This document shows, in pieces, positions 30,455 through 45,958 of a stretch of DNA of 51,590 bases (position 1 is its first letter; each line of letters begins with the position of its first letter). The notes under the pieces are model-generated. The model was not told the origin of the DNA. It ran no database searches and worked only from the letters and a program-made list of their open reading frames with translations. Source of the DNA: a virus (Duplodnaviria; Caudoviricetes); IMG/VR virus record IMGVR_UViG_3300044822_000051, positions 1 through 51,590 of that record; one strand, written 5' to 3'. The position numbers were made by a program, and so were the translations under genes.

Positions 30455-30852
30455 ATTTACACGGTACTGTACGTGGCGCGATTACCTCAGTGAACCCTGA
30501 TAAGCCAGTGCAGTGGCTTGCGTCCGCGGGTCCTAGTGTTGCGCCGGGCGGCAAACAGACAGCTACCTTCGCTGCCGCCGTTACTTTGCAAGGTCAGATC
30601 CAAGCGGCTCCTACTTCGATGTTGAAGCGGTATAATCTCCTGTCAGGCAATGAGATTTATCGCACGGTGTATTTCTACGGCCAGCGTCAGGCGATCAATC
30701 GCGCGGCCCAGCTTGGCGGGGATTTGTTGCAGTTCCCTGAAGTTCCTAACGGAACTACCCGCACGTGGCTGATTATCAAAGTGCCCGAGCAATGGCCCGA
30801 CTGGTGTTGTGTATTGTGCGTTATGCAATTGGACCCGAATAACCCGCCATGA
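30451..30852 (+). CDS. Head-closure protein
   Basis: MNLHG.VRGAI..VNP, GQIQA, GGDLL.F, WL...V.EQWPDWC. Confidence 0.75.
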   Translation: MNLHGTVRGAITSVNPDKPVQWLASAGPSVAPGGKQTATFAAAVTLQGQIQAAPTSMLKRYNLLSGNEIYRTVYFYGQRQAINRAAQLGGDLLQFPEVPNGTTRTWLIIKVPEQWPDWCCVLCVMQLDPNNPP

Positions 30853-31385
30853 GCTACTCTGTCAGTATCACACTTCAGAATGTGTATGAAGTGGTGCAAC
30901 CGCTGGTCATGGCGGTGACCGGGCTCGGGCAGAGTTTGGTGATACAGGACGCGCCGAATCGCAGCGCTATGCCGCCGGCATCGCCCGGATTCGTGGTCAT
31001 GCAGCTCACGCGGCAAAAACGCCTGCGCACGAATGTGGACACGACTCCGCCGGGTGCGAATCCTACCACTCAGTCGATTGAACAAGGGACGGAGCTTACG
31101 CTGCAGTTGGATTGTTATGGCGCCAGCTCAGGCGACTGGGCACAGATGTTGTCCGCGATCCTACGTGACGAACAGGGCTGCAATGCGCTAGAGCCCACGT
31201 GTGACCCACTTTATTGCGACGACCCCATGTGGGCGCCATTGGATGATTCAGAGCTGCAGTACGAGCAACATTGGATGCTATTTGCGAAACTGCAGTACAA
31301 TCCGATAACCACGGTGGGCCAGCAGTACGCCGACATCGTGGATTTTACACCGGTCAGCGTCAATCAGAAATTTCCTCCGGGTTGA
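30849..31385 (+). CDS. Tail terminator / neck protein
   Basis: NR..MP, RLRTN, QLDCYG, PLYCDDP, QYE..W...LQYNP. Confidence 0.75.
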   Translation: MSYSVSITLQNVYEVVQPLVMAVTGLGQSLVIQDAPNRSAMPPASPGFVVMQLTRQKRLRTNVDTTPPGANPTTQSIEQGTELTLQLDCYGASSGDWAQMLSAILRDEQGCNALEPTCDPLYCDDPMWAPLDDSELQYEQHWMLFAKLQYNPITTVGQQYADIVDFTPVSVNQKFPPG

Positions 31386-31638
31386 CCGGTGGGACGCCCG
31401 CGCACGATTTGAACTCGGGCGGCTTGTCGCACAGTTTCTTAAACTCCTTCCGATGTTGTTCTACAGTCTGCCATTCGCGCCAAATCACGTGAATGACTTG
31501 GCGTTCATCGTCACAGCATTCGGTGAGCTGTGCCGCGAGTGACCAAACCATGTCCATAAGCGCGGCCTTGCTCAATTTCCCCAGTTCCCCGGTATGTTTG
31601 TAAGGGACCAAGGCGGGCGGAATATTTTTAAGATGCAT
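31360..31638 (-). CDS. Hypothetical moron protein
   Basis: AGGA RBS; part of an antisense cassette. Confidence 0.65.
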   Translation of the reverse strand: MHLKNIPPALVPYKHTGELGKLSKAALMDMVWSLAAQLTECCDDERQVIHVIWREWQTVEQHRKEFKKLCDKPPEFKSCAGVPPVNPEEISD

Positions 31639-31686
31639 GTTTAGTTCCTGTTAGTTGAGCTGCTAGATCGATTTGCTGGCAGTTGG

Positions 31687-32145
31687 TCAGCGAACGGTCC
31701 CGCCTTGGTTGTACAATCGCACGAATGCCAGCGCAAGGGTGCGCCTGTATTCGGTCCGCGCCGATGCGCTAACGCGGTCGTACTCGGCCCATGCGGCGGC
31801 GCGAACGCGGTCAAACTCGGCCTGTGCGGCGGCGCAAACGCGGTCGTACTCAGCCAGCGCCGGTGCGCGAACGCGGTTGTACTCAGCCAGCGCCGATGCG
31901 TAAACGCGGTCGTACTCGGCCCATGCGGCGGCGCAAACGCGGTCGTACTCAGCCAGCGCCGGTGCGCAAACGCGGTCGTACTCAGCCCGCGCGGTTAGGG
32001 GGAGAAGCTCACCGACCCAACTCCGACGGAACTTATCGACTACCTTTAGGGCGACTTCCTCGGTGACTTCCACAGAGTCGCCAAACAGCGCGCGTTGGCC
32101 TTCGCATGCGCCGGCATCAATTAATTGTTGCAGTGTTAGTTTCAC
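31687..32145 (-). CDS. Protein with 11-aa tandem repeats (AEYDRVCAPAL/AAAW)
   Basis: AGGAG RBS; about seven 33-nt repeats at 31747-31987. Confidence 0.85.
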   Translation of the reverse strand: MKLTLQQLIDAGACEGQRALFGDSVEVTEEVALKVVDKFRRSWVGELLPLTARAEYDRVCAPALAEYDRVCAAAWAEYDRVYASALAEYNRVRAPALAEYDRVCAAAQAEFDRVRAAAWAEYDRVSASARTEYRRTLALAFVRLYNQGGTVR

Positions 32146-32267
32146 GTTTCTAGCTCCTGTTTGGTTGTAAGGCGTCGCTGGTGCCTGTCGGCATCGGGTT
32201 GCGCCCGTGTGGACAGGCGCAACCGCGTTGACTACAGTTCCAAGTTATGTTTGTCCGATGCTCAAGG

Positions 32268-32531
32268 TTAGGTCAGATCGTATCCGGTGATAGTCCACTC
32301 AAGGTCGCTCAAGTCCTCAACCCCCTCCAGATCGGCGGCCGACTGGTAGTAGTACGCGGTCAACACAGCATCGCCGTTATCCGAAATTGACGCTGAGTAT
32401 TCCACGCTATCGTCACCATCAGTCTGCAGGCGACCCGTGGGCGCGCAGTTGACGCTATCCAGCATGTTTACCAGCTCGGCGCCAATCGCCTGAATTGCCT
32501 GCTCGCGAGTCATTATGCCTTTGGTGCTCAT
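32268..32531 (-). CDS. Small acidic hypothetical protein
   Basis: AACTGGAGA RBS; first gene after an operator promoter. Confidence 0.8.
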   Translation of the reverse strand: MSTKGIMTREQAIQAIGAELVNMLDSVNCAPTGRLQTDGDDSVEYSASISDNGDAVLTAYYYQSAADLEGVEDLSDLEWTITGYDLT

Positions 32532-32558
32532 TGTCGTGTCTCTCCAGTTGGTGAGCCC

Positions 32559-32587
32559 AGTATACTGACGGCGCCGTCAGTTTGCAA
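32559..32587 (-). promoter_or_regulatory. Operator-spacer promoter (consensus copy)
   Basis: TTGCAA-ACTGACGGCGCCGTCAG-TATACT. Confidence 0.85.
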
Positions 32588-32662
32588 GCTCTAATTGGCA
32601 TTTAACATAATCCCGTGCAATACTCTGGCGAGCATTAACCCTCGCTGGGGACTATTACGCAC

Positions 32663-34291
32663 ATGCGCTTACGACTTTTTGCCGCCCTGGCGCTCGCCTT
32701 GTTTGCAACCGCCGGCCACGCGCAACAGCTCATCAATTGCGCTACCGCCACCCCTTGCGCTAACAACGGCCCCACGAATACCGGCACCGGCGACCAGCTT
32801 CCTACCGCCGGCACCAAGATAAACGCGAATTTTCTGGCGCTGCCTAGTGAGCTGTTTAACGGGTTACCTTTGACGGTGGCTCATGGCGGCACGGGCACCG
32901 CGAGTCCCACCGTCACGCAAGGCTCGGGTATCACAATTACGGGCACGTGGCCCAATCTGACCATTAGCGCCACGGGTGGCAGTACGCCTCCGTCACCGGC
33001 TTACGGCACGATTTACAACAACAACGGCTCCTACGGCAGTCTCCTTCCGGGGTCAACTGGCGTGTATTGTCTCAATTGGGGCAGTTTAACCGCGGCGCCC
33101 ACCTTGACGACTTCGTGCGGCGGCTCGGGTGGCGCAGGGTTCGCGGCCATCACCAGCGGCACGAATACGACGGCGACCATGACCGTGGGATCTGGCGGCA
33201 CGGTCACCTATGCCGGCTCGGGCGTAGTCAATGCCAATGAGATAGCTGGGCTAGTCTGGCCAAGTTTGGTCAACGGCGACTGTCTCACCAATAACGGGAC
33301 TGCTCTTTCGTGGGGCGCATGTGGCTCGGGTTCGAACGCGTTTAGCAGCCTCACTAGCGGCACCAATACAGCCATGGCGGCACTGTGCGGCACTGGCTGC
33401 AGTATCGGCGCTACAGGCTCGGGAACGATTACGGCGACCGCTGCGCCCGTGGCCGGCATTACCGGGTTTGGCACCGGCATTGAGACGTTCCTCGCCACTC
33501 CGAGCAGTGCCAACCTGCTGAGCGCACTGACGACCAAAACCGGCACCGGCGTGGCCGTATTCGGCACATCGCCCACGCTGACCACTCCCGCCCTGGCCGG
33601 CTCGTCCACGGGTACCACGACTTTCGCCAGTGCGAACGCCAGCGCTACGAACTACACCATCACATTCCCGGCCGCGACGGGCACGTTGCCGTACTGGGCC
33701 ACTACCCCGGTCAGCGGCGACTGTCTGCAGTATTCCGGCACTGCGGGACTCGTGGTCTCTGTGGCGTGCTCGGGCGGCGCAGTCTCCAGTGTCACCGCCG
33801 GCACATCAGGATCCGTGTCCGCATCGCCCACCACGGGCGCGGTTGTAGTCGATTTGGCGAGTCAATCGGCGGGCACCATGTGCGCCAATTTGACCGGTTC
33901 GGCGGGCGCTCCCACATGCGGCAATACAATGGCGTCGTTACAATCCGCATTGACTGCGGCAAACGCGCTAGAAGTCTCGGCTACTTTGTCGAGTGGCGCG
34001 ACCAACAATTACTCGCCTACCGGCTACGGCACCACTACGGCGATTCTGAATTTGACGCCCGCCTCGGGGGGCTCATCACTGACGGGACTTGCGGCCGGTT
34101 CGGCGATGCAACAGATTTTCATCATTAACGCCGAGGCTGCGGGCGGCACGGATAACATTACGCTTACCAATCAATCCAGCAGCTCTACCGCGGCGAATCG
34201 GTTCTTAGCTTCCGGAAACCTTGTAATTCCCCCAGGTGGTGGAGTGCAGTGTCTTTACCGGTCATCGGTTTCTTACTGGTGGTGTCACTAA
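32663..34291 (+). CDS. Signal-peptide-bearing fibre-like protein
   Basis: MRLRLFAALALALFATAGHA signal; GTGD.L.TAG.KINANF virion-anchor motif; Thr/Gly/Ser-rich; 14 Cys. Confidence 0.8.
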   Translation: MRLRLFAALALALFATAGHAQQLINCATATPCANNGPTNTGTGDQLPTAGTKINANFLALPSELFNGLPLTVAHGGTGTASPTVTQGSGITITGTWPNLTISATGGSTPPSPAYGTIYNNNGSYGSLLPGSTGVYCLNWGSLTAAPTLTTSCGGSGGAGFAAITSGTNTTATMTVGSGGTVTYAGSGVVNANEIAGLVWPSLVNGDCLTNNGTALSWGACGSGSNAFSSLTSGTNTAMAALCGTGCSIGATGSGTITATAAPVAGITGFGTGIETFLATPSSANLLSALTTKTGTGVAVFGTSPTLTTPALAGSSTGTTTFASANASATNYTITFPAATGTLPYWATTPVSGDCLQYSGTAGLVVSVACSGGAVSSVTAGTSGSVSASPTTGAVVVDLASQSAGTMCANLTGSAGAPTCGNTMASLQSALTAANALEVSATLSSGATNNYSPTGYGTTTAILNLTPASGGSSLTGLAAGSAMQQIFIINAEAAGGTDNITLTNQSSSSTAANRFLASGNLVIPPGGGVQCLYRSSVSYWWCH

Positions 34292-34292
34292 A

Positions 34293-35738
34293 ATGAGCCG
34301 TATTTTAGCTCTGCTCGCCGCTCTCGTATTTGCCGCCAGTGCGGCCGGTTCGGGTTTGGTTCCGCTGGGCGGCAGTACGTCTAGTAGCGGCGGGAGCGGG
34401 TTTACTCCGCAGACAGGGTTTGCTTATTCGGGCTCTACCGCATCAGGCGGCGTGATGACTATCACTAGCAGCAGCTCCGTGTTTGGTTCCAAGCCATACG
34501 GCGGCGGCCCCCCGTTGGTATGGGCGCCCATGACAACCGACATGAACGGATCCTCTTTGGGCCGTATCAGCGGGTCGGGCACCTGGTCAGTCGTAACCAA
34601 TCTAGTGTGGCAATCAGGCTGTGGTCCTACGGGCGCGGCGGGCTGCGCGTACGGCGGCACGACCAAGGGTGATGGTGTCATAGGTGGCCCCGGATCGGTC
34701 TATCAAGCGGTGGCCGCAGTTGACTTGAGTGAGTGGTCGGGCTGGGCGAGTCAAAATGCCGGTGCGGGCTATTACGTCAATGACCCAGGCCAGGGTTTCT
34801 ATATCTGGCGACAGGAGTATCATTCCGGCTTTGGCCATTTGGATGCTACATCATCCAACAGTTATAACAGTGTTGGTAATTACAATTACAAAAACATACG
34901 CTGGTTCAGCCTTTATAGCAGCGGGACGGCCGAGGGTTATCCCGACATTTACTACCCGACGCACAATCAGCGGTTCGCCGTCGATTCGTGCGAAACGCCT
35001 TATTGCTTCCCAGGTGTCCCGAATGGAGCGCCTACGCAGTACACCAATGCAACAACTACGGGGTCGCCTGACGTAAACGGCTCGGTTACCGTCCAACAGG
35101 CTTTTGATGGCATGACTTCAGGCAGTGGCGCATACAATAATTGGGTTACGGCCGAATTCGGACTGTTGACGAACACGTGCCTGAGCGGTGCAACCTGCTA
35201 TGCGAGCGGCGGTGCGCCCAATTCGCAATTTTCATATGTGGTAGTAGGCAAAAACAGTAACGCGCCCATTGAGACATGGCCGGTTAGTAACTATCAGAAC
35301 AGCAGCCCCGGCGTCGCTTGGATGTTCGTTGATAGCAGCTCACTGCAAACCAATGGGCACGGCACAATTATTCGCACGTTCGCACTCCAGGCCGTAGTTG
35401 ACGGTACGTCGGGTTGCCCGAGCTGCAGCGATTTGCCACTAAATGCGTACGTCAACTATGGGCCAACGTATGTAGACGACTGCCTGTGCCATGTGGTCGT
35501 ACAGGACACGTCAACCTACAACGCGGCTACGGCGCGTGAAATTCAAATTCCCAGCTCGTGGAGTTCAGGGTCTATAACCCTGACGCTTCGTGTTGGAGCA
35601 TTTTCGAATTTCCACGGTAAGTATTTGTTTGTCATCGATCCGTCTAATACGGCGCATTTGATCGGTAGCTTCACGACGCTGTTTGATGTGAAGGACGCCG
35701 TTAACGATGATTATTTTGACGTGAGGGAAGTCGCGTGA
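34293..35738 (+). CDS. Signal-peptide-bearing beta-rich (lectin/adhesin-like) protein
   Basis: MSRILALLAALVFAASAA signal; aromatic/Gly/Ser-rich; 10 Cys. Confidence 0.75.
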   Translation: MSRILALLAALVFAASAAGSGLVPLGGSTSSSGGSGFTPQTGFAYSGSTASGGVMTITSSSSVFGSKPYGGGPPLVWAPMTTDMNGSSLGRISGSGTWSVVTNLVWQSGCGPTGAAGCAYGGTTKGDGVIGGPGSVYQAVAAVDLSEWSGWASQNAGAGYYVNDPGQGFYIWRQEYHSGFGHLDATSSNSYNSVGNYNYKNIRWFSLYSSGTAEGYPDIYYPTHNQRFAVDSCETPYCFPGVPNGAPTQYTNATTTGSPDVNGSVTVQQAFDGMTSGSGAYNNWVTAEFGLLTNTCLSGATCYASGGAPNSQFSYVVVGKNSNAPIETWPVSNYQNSSPGVAWMFVDSSSLQTNGHGTIIRTFALQAVVDGTSGCPSCSDLPLNAYVNYGPTYVDDCLCHVVVQDTSTYNAATAREIQIPSSWSSGSITLTLRVGAFSNFHGKYLFVIDPSNTAHLIGSFTTLFDVKDAVNDDYFDVREVA

Positions 35739-36553
35739 GGCACTTTTTGCTGTACGTTGTCACGGCTTTCTTAGGGATTGTTGGGCTGCAGCCCAACGCA
35801 TTCGCCACCGCGTCTGTGCGTCAAGAATCCCATACGGCATGGACTGCCGCGGGAGCGACCACGGTTACTACACCCGCGTTTGGCTCGGCTGTGCTTACAG
35901 GCGACACTATAGAAACGTGGGTAATCTGCAGTTGCACCACGACGCCCACGGGTGTTACGGATTCTGGTAGTCAGACATATACTCTGCGCACGTCGGTGCA
36001 CGATAACAATACAGGCGTGACAATCTATCTATATACGCACGTCAATAATTCCAGTGCTACGGCGTTGACCGTCACGGCCACGTGGGGTGCTGCGGAAACA
36101 TACAACGGAATATGGGCGAAGGATATTACAGGCGTCTCATCTAGCCCGTACCAGACAGCCGGCGGTCAGTCGCAGGCTAACCCCGGTACTACTACGGGTT
36201 TGATTAGCAGCGGCAATGTGACGCCCACGGGCCAACCTGCCCTCATTTCATCTTTGTCCTGGGATTCTGCGGGTAATGCATCCAGCATAGTGGCCGGATC
36301 ACAGACTGCAGGCTCCAACGGCTGGCTGCTGAGCGGCGGCACGGCACCTACAGGGAGTTCGGGCTCTCAGCGTGTGACCAGCACGTCTGCCATTGCCATG
36401 ACGTACTCAAATAGTACGGACGGCGGTTCTGCTGACTTTGTCACAATGGCGGCTATTTATACTGAGGCTACCGCCACAGGATCGCCCAACCAACATATGC
36501 CGCTGACCGGCGTCGCAAAAGTTATTCGTCCGCAATTCAAGAAGGCTGCCTAA
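35735..36553 (+). CDS. Signal-peptide-bearing beta-rich protein
   Basis: MRHFLLYVVTAFLGIVGLQPNAFA signal; GTGA coupling. Confidence 0.75.
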   Translation: MRHFLLYVVTAFLGIVGLQPNAFATASVRQESHTAWTAAGATTVTTPAFGSAVLTGDTIETWVICSCTTTPTGVTDSGSQTYTLRTSVHDNNTGVTIYLYTHVNNSSATALTVTATWGAAETYNGIWAKDITGVSSSPYQTAGGQSQANPGTTTGLISSGNVTPTGQPALISSLSWDSAGNASSIVAGSQTAGSNGWLLSGGTAPTGSSGSQRVTSTSAIAMTYSNSTDGGSADFVTMAAIYTEATATGSPNQHMPLTGVAKVIRPQFKKAA

Positions 36554-36982
36554 ATGCGCTCCATTATGAAGTTTGTTGTCTGCACTGTCGCACTATTGGC
36601 GTGGGGCCTGTCGGGCGCGCAGTCTGTCTACAACCAGATCCCGTTTTCTACCAACAGCAAGGGTGTGCTGATAGCCCCCGCTACGCCGGCTGCGACTCAA
36701 GTTAAAGCTAGCGCGGGCACGCTGCTAAGTATCACATGCTTTAACCTGTTGGCTACGCCGGTGTACGTCAAGTTTTTCGATGCCACTTCGGTGACGTTGG
36801 GCACCACGAGTGCATCACTCGACTTGATGTGCCCTGGCAACACTGCCGGCACTGGCTTTGTGTTGGCTACACCGTTCACGTTCGCGACCGGCATTGAGGT
36901 GGCGGTAACGGGCGGCATTTCACTGACCGACAACACCTCAATTACGGCCAGCAGCGTGGTCATTAATTACACGTATCAGTAA
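36554..36982 (+). CDS. Signal-peptide-bearing small beta protein
   Basis: MKFVVCTVALLAWGLSGA signal; VKASAG.L....N....YVKFFD..F.TGI pattern. Confidence 0.75.
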   Translation: MRSIMKFVVCTVALLAWGLSGAQSVYNQIPFSTNSKGVLIAPATPAATQVKASAGTLLSITCFNLLATPVYVKFFDATSVTLGTTSASLDLMCPGNTAGTGFVLATPFTFATGIEVAVTGGISLTDNTSITASSVVINYTYQ

Positions 36983-37008
36983 TAGCCCGTGGGAGCTTTG
37001 AGGCAACA

Positions 37009-38613
37009 ATGGGTATTACGTTCGATAACCCTAATATCACGTTTGACGAACTTATCACGTTCGATACGACGGGCCTGAGTACTGGAGTTCACATGGGCGG
37101 CGTTTCCGCAAAACGGTTTGTAAGTTCGATCCCTAGCGTATTAGCGGCCGGCGGTGCCGCGTTGGGAATGAACGCGATTATTCTTACCGCGAATACCGCG
37201 GTGCCGATTGGCGCTCTACTGAGATTCGGCAGTGCTACAGCGGTGGCCAATTTCTTCGGTAGCAGCTCGCTTGAAGCCGAACTTGCCGCAACCTATTTTG
37301 CAGGCTTCGTAGGCGCGACACAGATCCCCAGTGCGCTATATTTCGCTCAATACAACACGACGGCAGTGGCGGGATACTTGCGCGGTGCGGCTTTGACGGG
37401 TGTTACTCCCGCGTCGCTGCAATCGCTGTCGGGTACCATCACGTTAGTAATCGACGGCGTGTCTCACACCTCGGCCAATATCAACCTTGCCTCAGCGTCT
37501 AGCTTCTCTGCGGCGGCTGCGTTGATTCAGACGGGTATCCAAGCGGGCACGCCGTCCAGCACGGCAACGTGCTCATACGACTCCACGCGCAACGCATTCG
37601 TGATTACATCCAGTACTACAGGCGGCTCATCCGCCGTCGCATATCCCACTGTAGGAACCCTCGCGAACGGCTTGTTGCTGACTCAGGCGGCCGGTGCGGT
37701 GCTGTCGCCGGGAGCTGCAGCGGCTACCCCAAGCGGGCTCATGACGCCGCTGACTACGATTTCTCAGGACTGGGCAACATTCATGCTGTCCTTCGATCCT
37801 GATGGAGGCGCGGACGGCGGTCCGATCAAAGTGCAGTTCGCCGAGTGGAATGCCGGCCAAGGCGATTACTACGCATTCGTCGCGTGGGATGCCGCCACGT
37901 TGCCGTCAACTGAGTCGGACGATAGCTCGTGTTTCGCACAGGCAGTGTCCGCTCTAGACGGCACAATAGCGATTTGGAGCGCTACTCAAGGCGCCCAAAA
38001 TGCCGCGTTCGTATGCGGCTACGCGGCGTCAATCAACTTCCAATCTCCGGGCGGTAGAACCAATGCGGCGTATCGCGCGAGTCCCGCACTTACGCCTGAT
38101 GTCACTAGCGACACGATTTACGGGAATATCACTGCCAACGGGTATAATTGCTACGCGGATGTAGCGACCCGCACGCAGGCATTCCAATGGTTTCAGCCCG
38201 GCACTATCAGCGGCAGTTGGGACTTCATTGACTCCTATCTGAATCAGATTTACTGGAATTCGCAGTTCCAGACTGATTACGCGGTGTACCTGAGCAACAC
38301 CCCGAGCATTCCGTATAACCAGGAAGGTTATGCAGGCGTTCGCGGCGCCATCTCATCTGACATTACATCAATGGGATCCTTCGGGGCGTACGTGGCCGGC
38401 GGCAACCTGTCGGGCGCACAACAGGCGGAGATTAACGCGGCGTGCGGCGGCATAAACGCGGCGGCCACGGTTATCTCCCAAGGCTGGTATCAGTACGTGG
38501 CTGATCCAGGCCCCACGGTTCGAGCCGCGCGTGGGTCGCCAATCAACAAGTTTTTCTATTTCGACGGCGGCTCGGTGCAAATCATTGACATGTCGTCCAC
38601 GGATGTCCAATAA
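37009..38613 (+). CDS. Tail sheath protein (DUF3383); second start at 37093
   Basis: V...PSVLAAGG, V.NFFG..S.EA..A..YF.GF, P.ALYFAQYN, QDWATF, SIPYNQEGY, R.SP...F.Y.DGGSVQ. Confidence 0.92.
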   Translation: MGITFDNPNITFDELITFDTTGLSTGVHMGGVSAKRFVSSIPSVLAAGGAALGMNAIILTANTAVPIGALLRFGSATAVANFFGSSSLEAELAATYFAGFVGATQIPSALYFAQYNTTAVAGYLRGAALTGVTPASLQSLSGTITLVIDGVSHTSANINLASASSFSAAAALIQTGIQAGTPSSTATCSYDSTRNAFVITSSTTGGSSAVAYPTVGTLANGLLLTQAAGAVLSPGAAAATPSGLMTPLTTISQDWATFMLSFDPDGGADGGPIKVQFAEWNAGQGDYYAFVAWDAATLPSTESDDSSCFAQAVSALDGTIAIWSATQGAQNAAFVCGYAASINFQSPGGRTNAAYRASPALTPDVTSDTIYGNITANGYNCYADVATRTQAFQWFQPGTISGSWDFIDSYLNQIYWNSQFQTDYAVYLSNTPSIPYNQEGYAGVRGAISSDITSMGSFGAYVAGGNLSGAQQAEINAACGGINAAATVISQGWYQYVADPGPTVRAARGSPINKFFYFDGGSVQIIDMSSTDVQ

Positions 38614-38615
38614 CC

Positions 38616-39047
38616 ATGGCTACGCTAACAGTCGCAAACAGCGCATTCACTCTGATTGTTCCGGGAGTATTCGCGGTGCCCGTCCCGATGAAAGGCTACT
38701 CCGCGGATGACGCATTCGACACAGACAACGTTGCGCCCAACGAAGTGCTCATGGGCGTGGACGCCATTTTGTCCGGCGGCTACGTGCCGTACCCGGTCAA
38801 ACTGAAATTTGTCCTGCAGGCTGACTCGCCGTCCAACTATTTTATGGACGCGTGGCGTCAGGCCATGGATGCGGCAAGGGATGCCTACCCGGCGAATGCG
38901 ACCATAGTGTCTCCGTCTGTTGGTAAAATCTGGACCTTTACCAAGGGGTTTTTGACAGGCGCCATGCCCACGCCTCCGGGCAAAAAGCTGTATCAGCCGC
39001 AGCCCTATGAAGTGACGTTTCAGAGCATAACCACGGCGGCGGCGTAA
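38616..39047 (+). CDS. Tail tube protein
   Basis: GYSADDAF, MGVDAILSGG, LQADSPS, FTKGFLT; follows the sheath. Confidence 0.85.
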   Translation: MATLTVANSAFTLIVPGVFAVPVPMKGYSADDAFDTDNVAPNEVLMGVDAILSGGYVPYPVKLKFVLQADSPSNYFMDAWRQAMDAARDAYPANATIVSPSVGKIWTFTKGFLTGAMPTPPGKKLYQPQPYEVTFQSITTAAA

Positions 39048-43869: not shown

Positions 43870-45374
43870 ACGTTATCCTAGCTCAGATTCAGGCACTATT
43901 GAGCCAGTTGGGTTTTCCAACTGCGGGCACTACGAACGTGCCGCAAATTCAGTGGACAACTACAGGGCTGGTTATTCCGTCTGAGGCGGCGGTGCTTGCG
44001 GGCGTGTTGTTGGATTGGAACGCGGTAGCCAATAATAACTTTAACCCCGCATTCAACACGCCGCAAGGTACGCTGATTTCCGCGCAGGCTGCGGCTATTT
44101 CGAATTGCTACGCGCAGATAGCGCTGATTGTGGCCGGCATGGACCCGGATCAAAATTACGGGTTCATGCAGGACGTTATAGGCCGGATCTATTATCAGAA
44201 TCGCAGTCCCGGTACGCCCACGGTTGTGTCATGCGTGGTCAATGGGCTCAACGGAACCGCTGTCCCCTACAACACTCCGATAGCAGAAGATACGTCCGGT
44301 AATGAGTACGTGTGCCAGGTCTCGGGCGCGTCGATACCGATTTCAGGCAACATCACGTTGACATTCGCCAACACGGTAAACGGTCCGATAGCTTGCGCGG
44401 CGAATTCCATCAAGTTGATTCAGGCCATCACCGGTATTGACTCCATATCCAACCCGGCCGTAGGCATTCCGGGCACCCTCGTGGAGTCTAGCGAAGCGTT
44501 TGAGTTCCAGCGTGAGCAATCCGTGGGCTCAAATTCGCAGGGCCTTACCGCATCCATCCAAGGGCAGGTGATCGGATTGCCGGGGGTAATTGACTGTTAC
44601 ACGATCGACAACCCCTCAACATCGGCGGTGCTGGTAGGGTCTACCAATTTTTCAGTAGCCGCAAAATCGGTCTACGTGGGCGTTATTGGCGGCACAGCAA
44701 CAGCCATAGCTAAAGCCATTTGGACCAAGAAAAGTTTGGGCTGCGGTTACAATGGTAACACTACAATTACCGTTACCGATACCAGCGTATCTACGAATCC
44801 GACGTATTCGGTTAGTTTCAACAACAACGCCGAAAACCCGGTTACGTACAACCTAACTATAAACATCAAGACCAACACCCTCCTGCCGTCCACGATAGTG
44901 ACGGATGTGCAAGCCGCGGCAAGTGGCGCGTTTTTGGGCACACTACCCGGCACGCAGCGAATTCGCATCGGGTCCACGTTTACCCCGATATCCTCCATTG
45001 CGCCATCTGTTACGACGTGCGAGGGGCCGGACATACCGGTGCAGATAGAGTCAATTTACATCGGCTCGGCATTCTCAGGCCAAGGCACCCTGACGAACGG
45101 CTCCAACGTGTTGACCATCAGCACGGCCAGCTCCGGTACTCTAACTGCGGGCACACCTGTAAAAGATGCCGCAAGCGCGATCCCTGCAGGTGCGTATATT
45201 GTGCAACAGCTTACGGGCACGGTTGGCGGGGTAGGTACGTATCAATTATCCATGAATGCGACGGCTACGGAGAGCACTGAGGCTATAACCGGCACTGCGA
45301 CAGGCACCGCCGCTACGATTGGCATAGACCAGAGCCCCGTGCTGGGCACTGTGACAGTTAACCTCGTATCATGA
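43866..45374 (+). CDS. Baseplate J-like wedge protein
   Basis: TPQG.L, G.MQD.IGRIY..R, ES..AFE..R..SV, IAKAIWTKK..GC.YNGNT. Confidence 0.88.
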   Translation: MNVILAQIQALLSQLGFPTAGTTNVPQIQWTTTGLVIPSEAAVLAGVLLDWNAVANNNFNPAFNTPQGTLISAQAAAISNCYAQIALIVAGMDPDQNYGFMQDVIGRIYYQNRSPGTPTVVSCVVNGLNGTAVPYNTPIAEDTSGNEYVCQVSGASIPISGNITLTFANTVNGPIACAANSIKLIQAITGIDSISNPAVGIPGTLVESSEAFEFQREQSVGSNSQGLTASIQGQVIGLPGVIDCYTIDNPSTSAVLVGSTNFSVAAKSVYVGVIGGTATAIAKAIWTKKSLGCGYNGNTTITVTDTSVSTNPTYSVSFNNNAENPVTYNLTINIKTNTLLPSTIVTDVQAAASGAFLGTLPGTQRIRIGSTFTPISSIAPSVTTCEGPDIPVQIESIYIGSAFSGQGTLTNGSNVLTISTASSGTLTAGTPVKDAASAIPAGAYIVQQLTGTVGGVGTYQLSMNATATESTEAITGTATGTAATIGIDQSPVLGTVTVNLVS

Positions 45375-45958
45375 GCGCGTCGTTTCCAACATTTGACGTT
45401 GATCAAGTGAATATTTCGCAGTTCGCGAATTCGCCCAAAGTGTCCGCATTGATAAGCGATTTTAACGCATGGTTTGATACTTCACCAAACCTGCTGCAGT
45501 TTTATAACTTGGTTTGGAACATCCTAACGGCCAAAGGATTCGGGCTGGACATTTGGGGCCGCATTTTGGGCGTCACGCGCAACATAACATTGTCGGGCAC
45601 CGGTACCTATTTCGGGTTTGTGAACGACGGCGCCGGAGATTTCACGGGGTTCGGGCAAGCGCCGTTTTACAGCGGCGCGACAGATACGACAACATACACG
45701 TTATCCGATACTCAGTATTTACCCGTGCTGCTGGCGAAGGCATTGGCCAACATATCCGTATGCACGGCCCCGTTGTTGAATCAACTGCTAGCCATTCTTT
45801 TCGCAGGCTACGGCCCCGTGTGGACGCAAGACAACGGCAATATGTCCATGTCTTACGTATTCTCGTTTACCCCGACCAACGTGCAAGAGGCAATGGTCAC
45901 GCAGCTCGGCATTCTCCCACATCCGGACGGCGTAGCCGTTAACATCGTCATAGTTTGA
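45371..45958 (+). CDS. Baseplate wedge protein (DUF2612)
   Basis: ISQFANSP, VWNILTAKGFGLDIWGRILGV.R, KALANI, LP.P.GV. Confidence 0.88.
   Translation: MSASFPTFDVDQVNISQFANSPKVSALISDFNAWFDTSPNLLQFYNLVWNILTAKGFGLDIWGRILGVTRNITLSGTGTYFGFVNDGAGDFTGFGQAPFYSGATDTTTYTLSDTQYLPVLLAKALANISVCTAPLLNQLLAILFAGYGPVWTQDNGNMSMSYVFSFTPTNVQEAMVTQLGILPHPDGVAVNIVIV

Follow-up and report, generated by a model that had tools for sequence, protein, structure and literature searches.

The tail sheath gene of this phage raises the question of why a conserved structural protein should begin with 28 codons ahead of the start that its family shares, and what the encoded peptide might do. Within the window, by which we mean the whole stretch of 51,590 bp that was analyzed, the gene is ORF 37009-38613, and its product is a DUF3383 (E217 gp31-type) tail sheath. 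PF11863 (DUF3383 in Pfam) matches it with 342.8 bits against a cut-off of 34.9 (4.7e-102), with profile positions 2-492 aligned to sheath residues 35-531, and it is also assigned to PHROG 205, tail sheath (5.2e-69). Solved sheaths in the PDB were matched as well (E217 gp31, 3.5e-22; 9b42 sheath, 2.9e-23), and sheath residue 33 was aligned to residue 3 of E217 gp31. These alignments agree with a first-pass annotation, made from the DNA letters alone, which had placed the beginning of the sheath-like sequence at ATG 37093. In all 21 related loci that were read, a stop codon lies 0-19 codons 5' of the equivalent start. Judged by these comparisons, Met29 (ATG 37093) is the family-conserved start and also the ancestral one.

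The 28 residues ahead of Met29 are MGITFDNPNITFDELITFDTTGLSTGVH. The in-frame peptide with three ITFD repeats, which the first-pass annotation had described ahead of the sheath, can be read directly from the window, and its units occupy codons 3-6, 10-13 and 16-19 (37015-26, 37036-47 and 37054-65). Their spacing had been taken as regular and is corrected here to 7 and then 6 residues, an irregularity that is absent from P0005 and P0007, which have 7 and 7; the 7/6-spaced pattern was found at no other locus in IMG/VR. The three DNA units, ATTACGTTCGAT, ATCACGTTTGAC and ATCACGTTCGAT, differ at third codon positions only, and all of these differences are synonymous. A six-frame translation of the whole window contains eight TFD occurrences, and since three of them fall within these 17 codons, the clustering is not attributable to chance. 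Only two residues precede the first unit, so that the tag occupies a chain end, here the N-terminal one. In the AlphaFold2 (AF2) model, residues 1-28 have a pLDDT below 50 and no secondary structure, which is the disorder that a linear motif would predict.

Five homologues, 63-84% identical to the sheath, carry the extension, and the identities of extension and body to the window were 86/84, 86/81, 68/64, 56/73 and 62/65%. The extension is therefore conserved about as well as the body, which argues that it is translated. Among the six tagged proteins, which come from different samples, indels of one and three residues stay in frame, and every T-F position is kept across the tagged homologues. 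Folding of the RNA around the two starts gave a z-score of 0.00, and thus no RNA-level signal at the extension. By these comparisons, the extension is a real, conserved and translated peptide. It could alternatively never be made, with ATG 37093 alone in use and the upstream open frame an accident of the junction with the inserted cassette described below; the family-conserved protein does begin at Met29, and P0004 (77% identical) together with eight other members of the clade is called from this residue. This reading is already disfavoured and appears extremely improbable, as six proteins hold the frame through indels with an extension conserved like the body, they retain exactly the motif that recurs at the termini of phage tail proteins unrelated to the sheath, and ATG 37009 has its own Shine-Dalgarno (SD) core. 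The coordinates of all features are summarized in Table 1.

Table 1. Features at the sheath locus and in the adjoining insert, with positions in the window.
Feature	Coordinates	Strand	Basis
Insert of ~5.7 kb: spacer with one minus-strand ORF; four consecutive signal-peptide-like ORFs (32663, 34293, 35735, 36554); sheath extension at its right edge	31386..37092	+	tblastn synteny, signal-peptide heuristic
Fibre-like protein 32663, 542 aa: signal-peptide-like residues 1-20, then T4 gp9/gp10-type N-terminal domain (GTGDQLPTAGTKINANF, with an 8-aa two-Cys insert); 14 Cys in total	32663..34291	+	hhalign, motif positions
Shine-Dalgarno-like core GAGG, 5 nt before ATG 37009 (37009-37011)	37000..37003	+	read from sequence
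N-terminal sheath extension, 28 codons: TFD x3 tag (residues 3-19), then Thr/Gly/Ser-rich linker TTGLSTGVH	37009..37092	+	read from sequence; conserved in P0002, P0003, P0005, P0006, P0007
GGAG core, 5 nt before the internal in-frame ATG 37093 (37093-37095), inside codons Gly26-Val27	37084..37087	+	read from sequence
Tail sheath body, family-conserved, Met29 to stop	37093..38613	+	PF11863, PHROG 205, E217 gp31; AF2 mean pLDDT 86.2
Tail tube gene, directly 3' of the sheath	38616..39047	+	Pfam PF22764 E217_Gp32, 2e-15

Further relatives were sought by several routes. A search with sheath residues 1-40 returned P0001-P0003 only, IMG/VR scans with P0001, P0006 and P0010 returned untagged relatives only (identities of up to 59%), and one metagenome scan for sheath relatives gave three loci, none of them tagged. 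Blastn of the sheath region against 50,697 phage records found no match, and a protein scan of genome contigs gave no loci. Among the sequencing runs listed, one DNA run, a peat metagenome that may be the source of this phage, contains the sequence, and none is an RNA run.

Both start codons named in the first-pass annotation, ATG 37009 with GAGG and the in-frame ATG 37093 with its own GGAG, are present, and the gene thus has two in-frame starts that each possess a ribosome-binding site. When an SD core was defined as 4 nt at a spacing of 4-9, such cores precede 7 of the 30 putative gene starts in this phage and 5 of the 134 internal in-frame ATGs of the 30 genes, ATG 37093 included. Initiation at both ATGs would yield a mixture of tagged and untagged sheath subunits, of which only a subset bears fibres. 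We consider this possible but somewhat doubtful. The two cores are of a kind that is rare in this phage and have identical spacing, a Met lies at or beside position 29 in all six tagged proteins, nine close relatives are called from the Met29 equivalent, and a trimeric fibre on every sheath subunit would apparently be costly sterically. However, the internal ATG with its core is the ancestral start, as seen in untagged relatives, and may persist unused. The Gly-Val codons that form the core also encode the conserved S-T-G linker, so either constraint could preserve them. Moreover, a promoter or a terminator between the ATGs had been considered and was rejected, as the interval contains no site resembling either. 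The two-isoform reading is a refinement of the docking explanation developed below and not an alternative to it. An in-frame dual-start phage gene is reportedly also found in the lambda S107/S105 holin-antiholin pair, where each of two closely spaced in-frame starts likewise has a ribosome-binding site of its own and two forms that behave differently result; in the present gene, by contrast, the starts are 28 codons apart, the second one is ancestral, and both products are predicted from the sequence.

A possible partner for the tag emerged from its distribution in other phages. The first-pass annotation had suggested that TFD repeats often occur near GTGD..KIN.NF proteins, and this proved to be correct and the association strong. 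The motif TFDxxx[IV]TFDxxx[IV]TF was found at 22 IMG/VR loci; four low-complexity repeats were dropped and one of the remaining 18 was cut, leaving 17 usable loci. In 17 of these 17 metagenomic loci, the tagged gene is succeeded by one whose product starts with M..IN.G..NDGTGD.LR....KIN.NF. Conversely, a TFD lies within 300 nt upstream of 30 of 84 such genes, compared to 1 of 84 and 2 of 84 in the controls, and within the last 45 aa of 22 of 92 ORFs ending just before such a gene, compared to 21 of 2061 other ORFs. The GTGD..KIN.NF motif corresponds to PF07880 (T4_gp9_10_N), which recognizes 36 of the 37 members that were aligned (best 3.4e-14), and a profile of the motif retrieved T4 gp10 (1.2e-14) and gp9 (6.3e-8) from the PDB. 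Among the 37 N-terminal domain sequences, G22, D23, K31, I32, N33, N35 and F36 are invariant, and in 84 of 129 instances the flanks were long enough for the test and a start codon lies exactly 16 codons before GD.

The proteins that carry the tag comprise a PF06199 tail-tube-family protein, a PHROG 1302 distal tail protein, baseplate wedge proteins of PF23786 and PHROG 2885, and PHROG 38559 proteins. The tag sits mostly at the ends of its carriers and, in one carrier type, inside the distal tail protein. In the other tags, which are C-terminal, the chain runs on for 2-4 residues beyond the last unit, 56 and 113 residues being the exceptions. In an unrelated complete phage (G001/L028), a 52-aa TFD-tagged protein is followed by a gp9/10-N fibre with a predicted signal peptide. 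As a specificity control, prokaryote genomes were scanned for TFD x3; 42 loci were obtained, mostly 21-nt tandem repeats among those read, and the gp9/10-N motif was near none of the 42. A TFD profile gave only chance matches in the PDB (E >1), whose sequences lack the motif, and the tagged tube-family protein had no tblastn match among phage records. T4 gp7 was considered as a TFD carrier and rejected, as it has no TFD repeats, and the one solved system therefore does not use a TFD plug. A literature search on the TFD motif returned nothing about phages, and the available parts of structure papers do not mention it. A PTFD at the N-terminus of ORF 45371 in the window was rejected as a second tag, since P.FD[IV]D..ISQ[YF]ANSP is conserved there in relatives without the fibre.

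The only GTGD..KIN.NF protein of the window is 32663, which shares the invariant G-D..K-I-N-x-N-F positions, and profile-profile comparison shows its domain to be homologous to the T4 gp9/gp10 attachment domain. With the window excluded from the 35 canonical N-termini, hhalign of the 32663 family (8 sequences) gave 94.1% and an E of 1.3e-7 over 38 columns. Against PF07880 itself, 32663 scored 13.2 bits (E 0.092), which is below the gathering cut-off of 25, and the domain is hence called gp9/10-N-like and not Pfam-certified. It is the sole match to this domain in the genome. The domain is preceded by 20 signal-peptide-like residues, and canonical position 2 corresponds to residue 20, at the predicted cleavage site; the signal-peptide calls derive from a crude heuristic and inspection by eye. 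On the basis of this domain, we propose 32663 as the socket for the tag.

The fibre gene and the tag form the opposite ends of an inserted cassette. In six syntenic relatives (L150, L154, L155, L003, L165 and L167), tblastn showed a homologue of 30849-31385 that is followed by the sheath gene, and 32663, 34293, 35735 and 36554 had no tblastn match in these relatives. Judged by this synteny, the cassette is an insertion in this lineage. Its composition profile carries no clear foreign signature.

Co-occurrence of the extension with the secreted operon had been put forward earlier as a check, and from the sequences the tag and the fibre gene appear to be jointly present or jointly absent in two lineages. 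In the first, the contigs of the tagged sheaths P0002 and P0003 measure 52,295 and 53,793 bp, sizes that recur for the contigs of the 32663 homologues P0124 and P0123, and the co-occurrence rests on this match in size. Near the untagged sheaths, the gp9/10-N-type motif was found in none of 20 distinct relatives within up to 10 kb on each side. The second lineage comprises a tagged wedge protein (L018), with a gp9/10-N gene after it, and the homologue of this wedge protein in Pelagibacter phage HTVC008M, which has no tag at its end; the HTVC008M genome gave no PF07880 match (two in the T4 control). The sheath tree counts against a docking role: the tagged rows fall within a 15-row clade in which nine rows are called from the internal Met, and at least three changes are needed to explain the pattern.

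Finally, a complex was predicted from three copies of 32663 residues 22-120, for which a trimer was assumed, and sheath residues 1-60. The score was 0.45 (0.51, 0.21 and 0.45 in the individual runs), compared to 0.01 for the best of three controls; the runs shared at least 91% of their contacts, and the partner pLDDT was at least 46. The tool had been calibrated on 80 solved complexes and 110 mismatched pairs, of which 58 and 2, respectively, attained the mark; scores of 0.60 or less accounted for only 7 of the 80 solved complexes and for both of the passing mismatches. The complex of the peptide with the 32663 N-domain trimer, suggested in the first-pass annotation as a check, gives weak support to a contact.

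With regards to these data, the TFD x3 tag probably docks a gp9/gp10-type fibre to the tail, the sheath carrying the plug for 32663. The translated 28 codons would give the sheath a flexible N-terminal tail, of which residues 3-19 would form the tag, a portable linear motif that tail platform proteins would carry at a free end or, in some cases, within a loop. This motif would act as a plug for fibres with a T4 gp9/gp10-type N-terminal attachment domain, and a single chain bearing three repeats would suit a fibre built of three subunits. Acquisition of the 5.7-kb cassette may have been the event that attached the plug to the N-terminal sheath arm, and the first gene of the cassette, 32663, would encode the matching socket-bearing fibre. 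We infer the binding itself, the trimer stoichiometry, the rings in which the tag would be exposed and the time at which the partners would meet. The docking-tag idea of the first-pass annotation is thereby strengthened by the conserved peptide, the pairing of TFD with gp9/10-N and the co-variation with the fibre gene, but not much by the complex prediction.

Several observations speak against docking. A cytoplasmic tail and an exported fibre would be kept in separate compartments until lysis. The arrangement is also atypical, as the tag is N-terminal and not C-terminal, the second spacer is 6 and not 7, and the only gp9/10-N-like gene lies 4.3 kb upstream of the tagged gene instead of directly downstream. 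Since the fibre and the three following proteins look Sec-exported and the fibre is Cys-rich, the partners would meet only once lysis mixes the compartments, and the tail would then be joined to the exported fibre after lysis. An exception would arise if the hydrophobic N-termini were not cleaved signals.

The tail could instead serve the sheath itself, by delaying polymerization, by acting as a longer handshake arm or by binding a chaperone or a host surface sugar, in which case the link to gp9/10-N would reflect shared modules and not contact. According to the E217 structure paper, the N-terminal arm of its sheath (residues 1-23) is a strand of an inter-subunit sheet (PMC10329688). The tail described here is joined directly to this arm and may consequently be buried in most rings, where it would fall short of the surface, and the structural support for fibre contact is the weak complex prediction. 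However, the same tag occurs on carriers whose folds and ways of assembling are unrelated, which a sheath-specific role fails to explain, the gp9/10-N gene adjoins the tagged gene at every usable locus (17/17), tag and fibre gene come and go together in two lineages, and untagged relatives build their sheaths without it. A role confined to the sheath is therefore very unlikely, and docking remains the preferred reading.

Docking of this type would have parallels in known systems. According to a T4 review, gp7 has a domain to which the N-domain of gp9 binds, and the trimer of gp10 N-domains is joined coaxially by the short fibre (PMC3004832). The N-terminal domain proposed here as the socket is the one by which T4 holds trimeric fibrous proteins on a monomeric platform protein, and several of the TFD-tagged carriers are wedge proteins that occupy the position of gp7. 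In contrast to T4, the platform would here be the sheath, and the domain follows a signal-peptide-like leader and contains a two-Cys insert; the comparison is made at the domain level. In E217, which likewise belongs to the DUF3383-sheath phage type, the fibre attachment loop of gp45 is lodged within the trimeric coiled coil at the N-terminus of gp46 (PMC10329688), so that a single platform chain is inserted at the three-fold interface of the fibre N-termini. There, the attaching element is a loop of a baseplate protein and lacks a repeat motif, and the fibre is a cytoplasmic one bound to the baseplate, whereas the present candidate is a terminal three-repeat peptide on the sheath.

The canonical pair is found in the cultured Nonlabens (Persicivirga) phage P12024S, where gp45 ends in ..KFDSTTITFDNTITTF and a gp9/10-type N-domain opens the product of the following gene, gp46. 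It differs from the present locus in that the tag lies at the C-terminus of a PHROG 38559 protein of 755 aa, encoded in a siphovirus-like genome, and gp46 has no visible signal peptide. The extended major tail proteins SPP1 gp17.1* and lambda gpV are said to decorate tail shafts sub-stoichiometrically, the SPP1 domain reportedly being added by frameshifting. Like the sheath discussed here, these proteins (gpV with its Ig-like domain) are repeating tail-shaft subunits with an optional exposed appendage; theirs are C-terminal folded domains, whereas the motif described here is linear and N-terminal and would serve to bring in a separate fibre.

A wider, tentative and rather unlikely generalization would be a shared phage plug-and-socket of TFD x3 and a gp9/gp10-type N-domain trimer, in which a fusion of ~20 codons adds a fibre to any tail platform. 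In the present phage, the plug would be on a contractile sheath, the socket fibre would be Sec-exported and disulfide-bonded, and the virion would be finished with periplasm-matured appendages after lysis, outside the cytoplasm. If TFD x3 is the ligand of the gp9/gp10-type N-domain, it would offer a simple sequence rule for finding anchor-fibre pairs in uncultured as well as cultured phages (e.g., P12024S), would account for fibres hopping among baseplate, tube and sheath platforms, and would provide a tag of ~20 residues for fixing receptor-binding proteins to phage tails in engineering. With the tag on the sheath and a Cys-rich partner that appears to be exported, completion of the virion would gain a post-lysis step, and we know of no described example of this kind. 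In P12024S, both gp45 and gp46 are annotated as hypothetical proteins.

The window (51,590 bp) is a phage genome from IMG/VR, complete and bounded by direct terminal repeats, and the sole DNA holder listed for it among sequencing runs is a peat metagenome run. Besides its Pfam match (see table), the sheath ORF matches PHROG 205 and aligns with E217 gp31 (3.5e-22), query residue 33 pairing with chain residue 3. Further downstream lie a tape measure and a conventional baseplate, the latter with tail-fibre genes of its own.

Features of the window genome discussed in the text
Feature	Coordinates	Strand	Size and remarks
Minus-strand ORF in left part of insert (31386-32662)	31687-32145	-	152 aa; PHROG hits faint only
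Promoter-like sites	32582-32624		just ahead of first cassette gene
Four consecutive signal-peptide-like ORFs (32663, 34293, 35735, 36554)	32663-36982		542, 481, 272, 142 aa; first two Cys-rich (14, 10 Cys)
gp9/10-N-type domain, within ORF 32663-34291	32720-32929
Tail sheath, DUF3383 / E217 gp31 type	37009-38613	+	534 aa; PF11863 4.7e-102, residues 35-531
Tail tube gene	starts 38616		PF22764; directly after sheath
PHROG 587 protein	45371-45958		195 aa

The sheath frame opens at ATG 37009, preceded by GAGG (37000-37003) with a 5-nt spacer, and contains an in-frame ATG at 37093, preceded by GGAG (37084-37087), again with a 5-nt spacer. The 28 residues added before Met29 read MGITFDNPNITFDELITFDTTGLSTGVH and hold three TFD units, confirming the two starts and the repeat extension described in the first-pass annotation. 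Six-frame translation of the whole genome yields eight TFD occurrences, three of them inside these 17 codons. Differences among the three 12-nt repeat units are confined to synonymous third positions, which suggests that selection acts on the peptide and not on a DNA site, and the RNA around the two starts was no more stably folded than its shuffled versions (z = 0.00).

Searching 5.8 billion proteins with the sheath gave 701 matches, of which the best 120 were listed and 16 retrieved. The extension was present in five of these 16 homologues (P0002, P0003, P0005, P0006 and P0007; 84-63% identical), and among the best 120 of 701 matches only these five cover 99-100% of the query. Their extension/body identities to the window sheath are 86/84, 86/81, 68/64, 56/73 and 62/65%, respectively. 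Indels of one and three residues preserve the frame and every TF position is conserved, the third unit of P0007 reading TFGGGD. Since an untranslated stretch would not show body-like identity, frame-keeping indels and retained TF positions, translation from ATG 37009 is established at the comparative level. The conserved N-terminal peptide is also unstructured: in the AF2 model, residues 1-28 lack structure (pLDDT <50), as expected of a linear motif, next to a body with a mean pLDDT of 86.2 and a pTM of 0.83.

In all 21 related sheath loci read (20 distinct contigs, 38-59% identical; L166, with a 5'-truncated match, was left out), a stop codon lies 0-19 codons ahead of the conserved start and the extension is absent. 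Judged by these sequences, the extension is a derived state. In a sheath tree computed with the extension removed, six tagged rows fall inside one 15-row clade, the remaining nine rows (P0004, P0008-P0014, P0016) being called from the internal Met. The tag label needs at least three changes on this tree, and loss, separate gain and gene-calling differences are all compatible with it.

The annotation had also proposed two isoforms, with ribosomes initiating at both ATG 37009 and ATG 37093. The Shine-Dalgarno core indeed stands at identical spacing before both ATGs, but the internal ATG and its core represent the ancestral start, and this core shares codons with the conserved S-T-G linker. While Met29 is conserved in the tagged proteins and the core is rare in the window (7/30 gene starts, some possibly mis-assigned, and 5/134 internal in-frame ATGs, ATG 37093 counted), no promoter-like or terminator-like site was found between the two ATGs. 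We consider the use of both starts plausible but less likely than not, and the two-isoform part of the proposal is hypothetical. Shine-Dalgarno use is weak in this phage altogether, with the 4-nt core at spacing 4-9 found at 7 of 30 putative starts, some of which may be mis-assigned.

Scanning IMG/VR for TFD-x3-[IV]TFD-x3-[IV]TF returned 22 loci, of which four low-complexity tandem repeats (L007, L010, L015, L027) were set aside. In the 18 kept loci, the motif mostly lies 2-4 residues before the C-terminus of a large protein; the exceptions are one family with the motif 56 residues from the end and a distal tail protein carrying it internally. As the L017 sequence ends at the stop of the tagged gene, 17 loci were usable, and in all 17 the next gene starts with M..IN.G...NDGTGD.LR....KIN.NF.E.Y or a near variant. 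These loci are not independent and represent about six carrier contexts, among them a PF06199 tail-tube-family protein (with a PHROG 1302 distal tail protein at the same loci), PF23786 baseplate wedge proteins, giant PHROG 2885 wedge proteins, PHROG 38559 proteins and a 52-aa protein.

The converse scan for GD-x7-KINxNF gave at least 129 instances on at least 120 stretches. Among the matches listed, 84 instances had a start codon exactly 16 codons upstream and sufficient flank, and TFD occurred within 300 nt upstream of 30 of them, compared with 1/84 downstream and 2/84 antisense. Likewise among the matches listed, TFD was found in the last 45 residues of 22/92 ORFs ending just ahead of a gp9/10-N-type gene versus 21/2061 other ORFs, and the heptad pair [TS][FYLW]D in 11/92 versus 2/2061. 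The statement in the first-pass annotation that TFD repeats often occur near GTGD..KIN.NF proteins was therefore accurate: tag and motif travel together across unrelated carriers. As a specificity control, prokaryote genomes were scanned with the same TFD DNA pattern. The 42 loci recovered are mostly 21-nt tandem repeats as far as read, and none (0/42) has an N-terminal GD-x7-KINxNF-type motif. A 21-nt tandem repeat reading ..TFD[KR]LRM.. in one frame was seen in MAGs of many phyla (L178, L179, L184, L195, L196, L198, L201, L204, L216 and others) and seems to be a repeat of the DNA rather than a protein motif.

In an alignment of 37 GD-x7-KINxNF N-termini, 36 members match Pfam PF07880 (T4_gp9_10_N; best 3.4e-14), and the derived profile finds T4 gp10 (1.2e-14) and gp9 (6.3e-8) among solved chains. 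According to the relevant sections of a T4 review, the N-domains of gp9 and gp10 are homologous, that of gp9 binds a domain of gp7, and the gp10 N-domain trimer is the coaxial attachment point of the short fibre (PMC3004832). Together, these matches and the review identify GTGD..KIN.NF as a module already known for attaching trimeric fibrous proteins. T4 gp7 itself contains no TFD repeats. A TFD x3 profile had no match among PDB sequences, and a full-text search on the motif returned nothing on phages; the plug thus appears undescribed in the literature searched, though papers beyond it, e.g., that on the 2016 T4 baseplate structure, may be relevant.

The window genome encodes exactly one gp9/10-N-type domain, located in the 32663 protein with a profile that includes the window's own row. 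Pfam alone gives 13.2 bits, under the 25-bit threshold, but a window-family profile (8 proteins) matched 35 canonical N-termini, window excluded, with 94.1% probability (E 1.3e-7). Residue 20 aligns with canonical position 2, so that the canonical N-terminus falls at the end of the signal-peptide-like leader (MRLRLFAALALALFATAGHA / QQLINC..). The domain has an 8-residue insert with two of the protein's 14 Cys. Leader-bearing domains of this type recur, as in L127 (IMG/VR, ~5102, minus strand), where a hydrophobic leader precedes the domain (..MFFLMFCSHAQ / NINLVNVG..). L101, L102, L125 and L126 show two tandem motifs ~100-140 residues apart or a single motif far from the N-terminus.

In six syntenic relatives compared by tblastn (L150, L154, L155, L003, L165, L167), a homologue of 30849-31385 is followed by the sheath gene after 4 to ~590 nt, and ORFs 32663, 34293, 35735 and 36554 have no match. 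This arrangement marks the ~5.7 kb at 31386-37092 as an insertion in the window, with the TFD extension as its right edge. A crude heuristic assigns signal-peptide-like N-termini to 5 of 54 window ORFs. Four of the five are the consecutive cassette ORFs, which lie within the structural module, flanked by a head-tail gene and the sheath, and have no match in Pfam or PHROGs.

Co-occurrence of tag and fibre gene was concordant in two lineages. P0002 and P0003, two of the tagged sheaths, come from contigs of 52,295 and 53,793 bp, and the contigs of the 32663 homologues P0124 and P0123, which share its leader and domain, have the same two lengths; from these equal lengths rather than from DNA, we infer that both genes reside in the same phages. 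For the 20 untagged sheath relatives, neither GD-x7-KINxNF nor a TFD pair was found in up to 10 kb of DNA on each side. In the second lineage, the L018/L009 wedge protein carries a terminal tag and the next gene is of the gp9/10-N type, whereas its homologue gp055 of Pelagibacter phage HTVC008M, which occupies the gp7 position downstream of gp25- and gp6-like genes, ends untagged (..IPAQIKTSLG) and precedes another wedge gene; PF07880 has no match in the HTVC008M genome (T4 control: 2). The RefSeq label of gp055 (L173 5001-8051), 'head closure Hc2' (PHROG 3465), is probably wrong, given the place of the gene directly behind gp25-/gp6-like wedge genes and the matches of its relatives to PF23786 (Baseplate_wedge). 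A cultured pair is found in Nonlabens phage P12024S, where gp45 ends ..KFDSTTITFDNTITTF and gp46 starts MAILNINLGTAPNDGTGDDLRSGGNKINKNF. In the complete 57.7-kb phage G001 (L028 1-773), which lacks a DUF3383 sheath, a 52-aa ORF downstream of capsid-module genes ends ITFDRPDITFDRPDITFDQEQE, and the next gene encodes a gp9/10-N-type fibre with a signal-peptide-like leader. Like the window, this phage pairs a cytoplasmic tag with a putatively exported fibre, which makes an artefact less likely.

For the docking itself, three copies of 32663 residues 22-120 and sheath residues 1-60 were modelled with custom alignments. The complex scored 0.45 (runs 0.51, 0.21 and 0.45; best of three controls 0.01), with runs agreeing in at least 91% of contacts and a partner pLDDT of at least 46. 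In calibration, the tool's mark was reached by 58/80 solved complexes and 2/110 mismatched pairs, yet at ≤0.60 by just 7 of those 80 and by both passing mismatches; the prediction hence lends weak support to tag-trimer docking and strengthens the comparative case slightly. The comparative evidence supports reading the extension as a docking tag, as first proposed, while the periplasm-matured fibre of that proposal is, like the isoforms, hypothetical. The three repeats of one sheath chain would engage the three subunits of the fibre N-domain, in analogy to E217, for which the structural report describes one gp45 loop inside the coiled coil that the three N-termini of fibre gp46 form (PMC10329688). 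The same report places the E217 sheath N-terminal arm (residues 1-23) as a strand in an inter-subunit sheet (PMC10329688), so that the tag, on a linker of ~9 residues, may be accessible only on arms that stay exposed. Speculatively, one candidate site is the ring nearest the baseplate, which is also the location of T4 gp9. A fibre that is exported, and probably disulfide-bonded, would come into contact with a cytoplasmic tail only once the cell has lysed. Fibre attachment via a gp9/gp10 N-domain is a known kind of system; the new elements are the TFD x3 plug with its portability and sheath location, and the putatively exported partner. Elsewhere in the window, the PHROG 587 protein matches no more than the C-terminal portion of far longer frames in relatives (several hundred codons further upstream in L150 and L154), by which comparison this baseplate-distal protein is variable or split in its N-terminal region.
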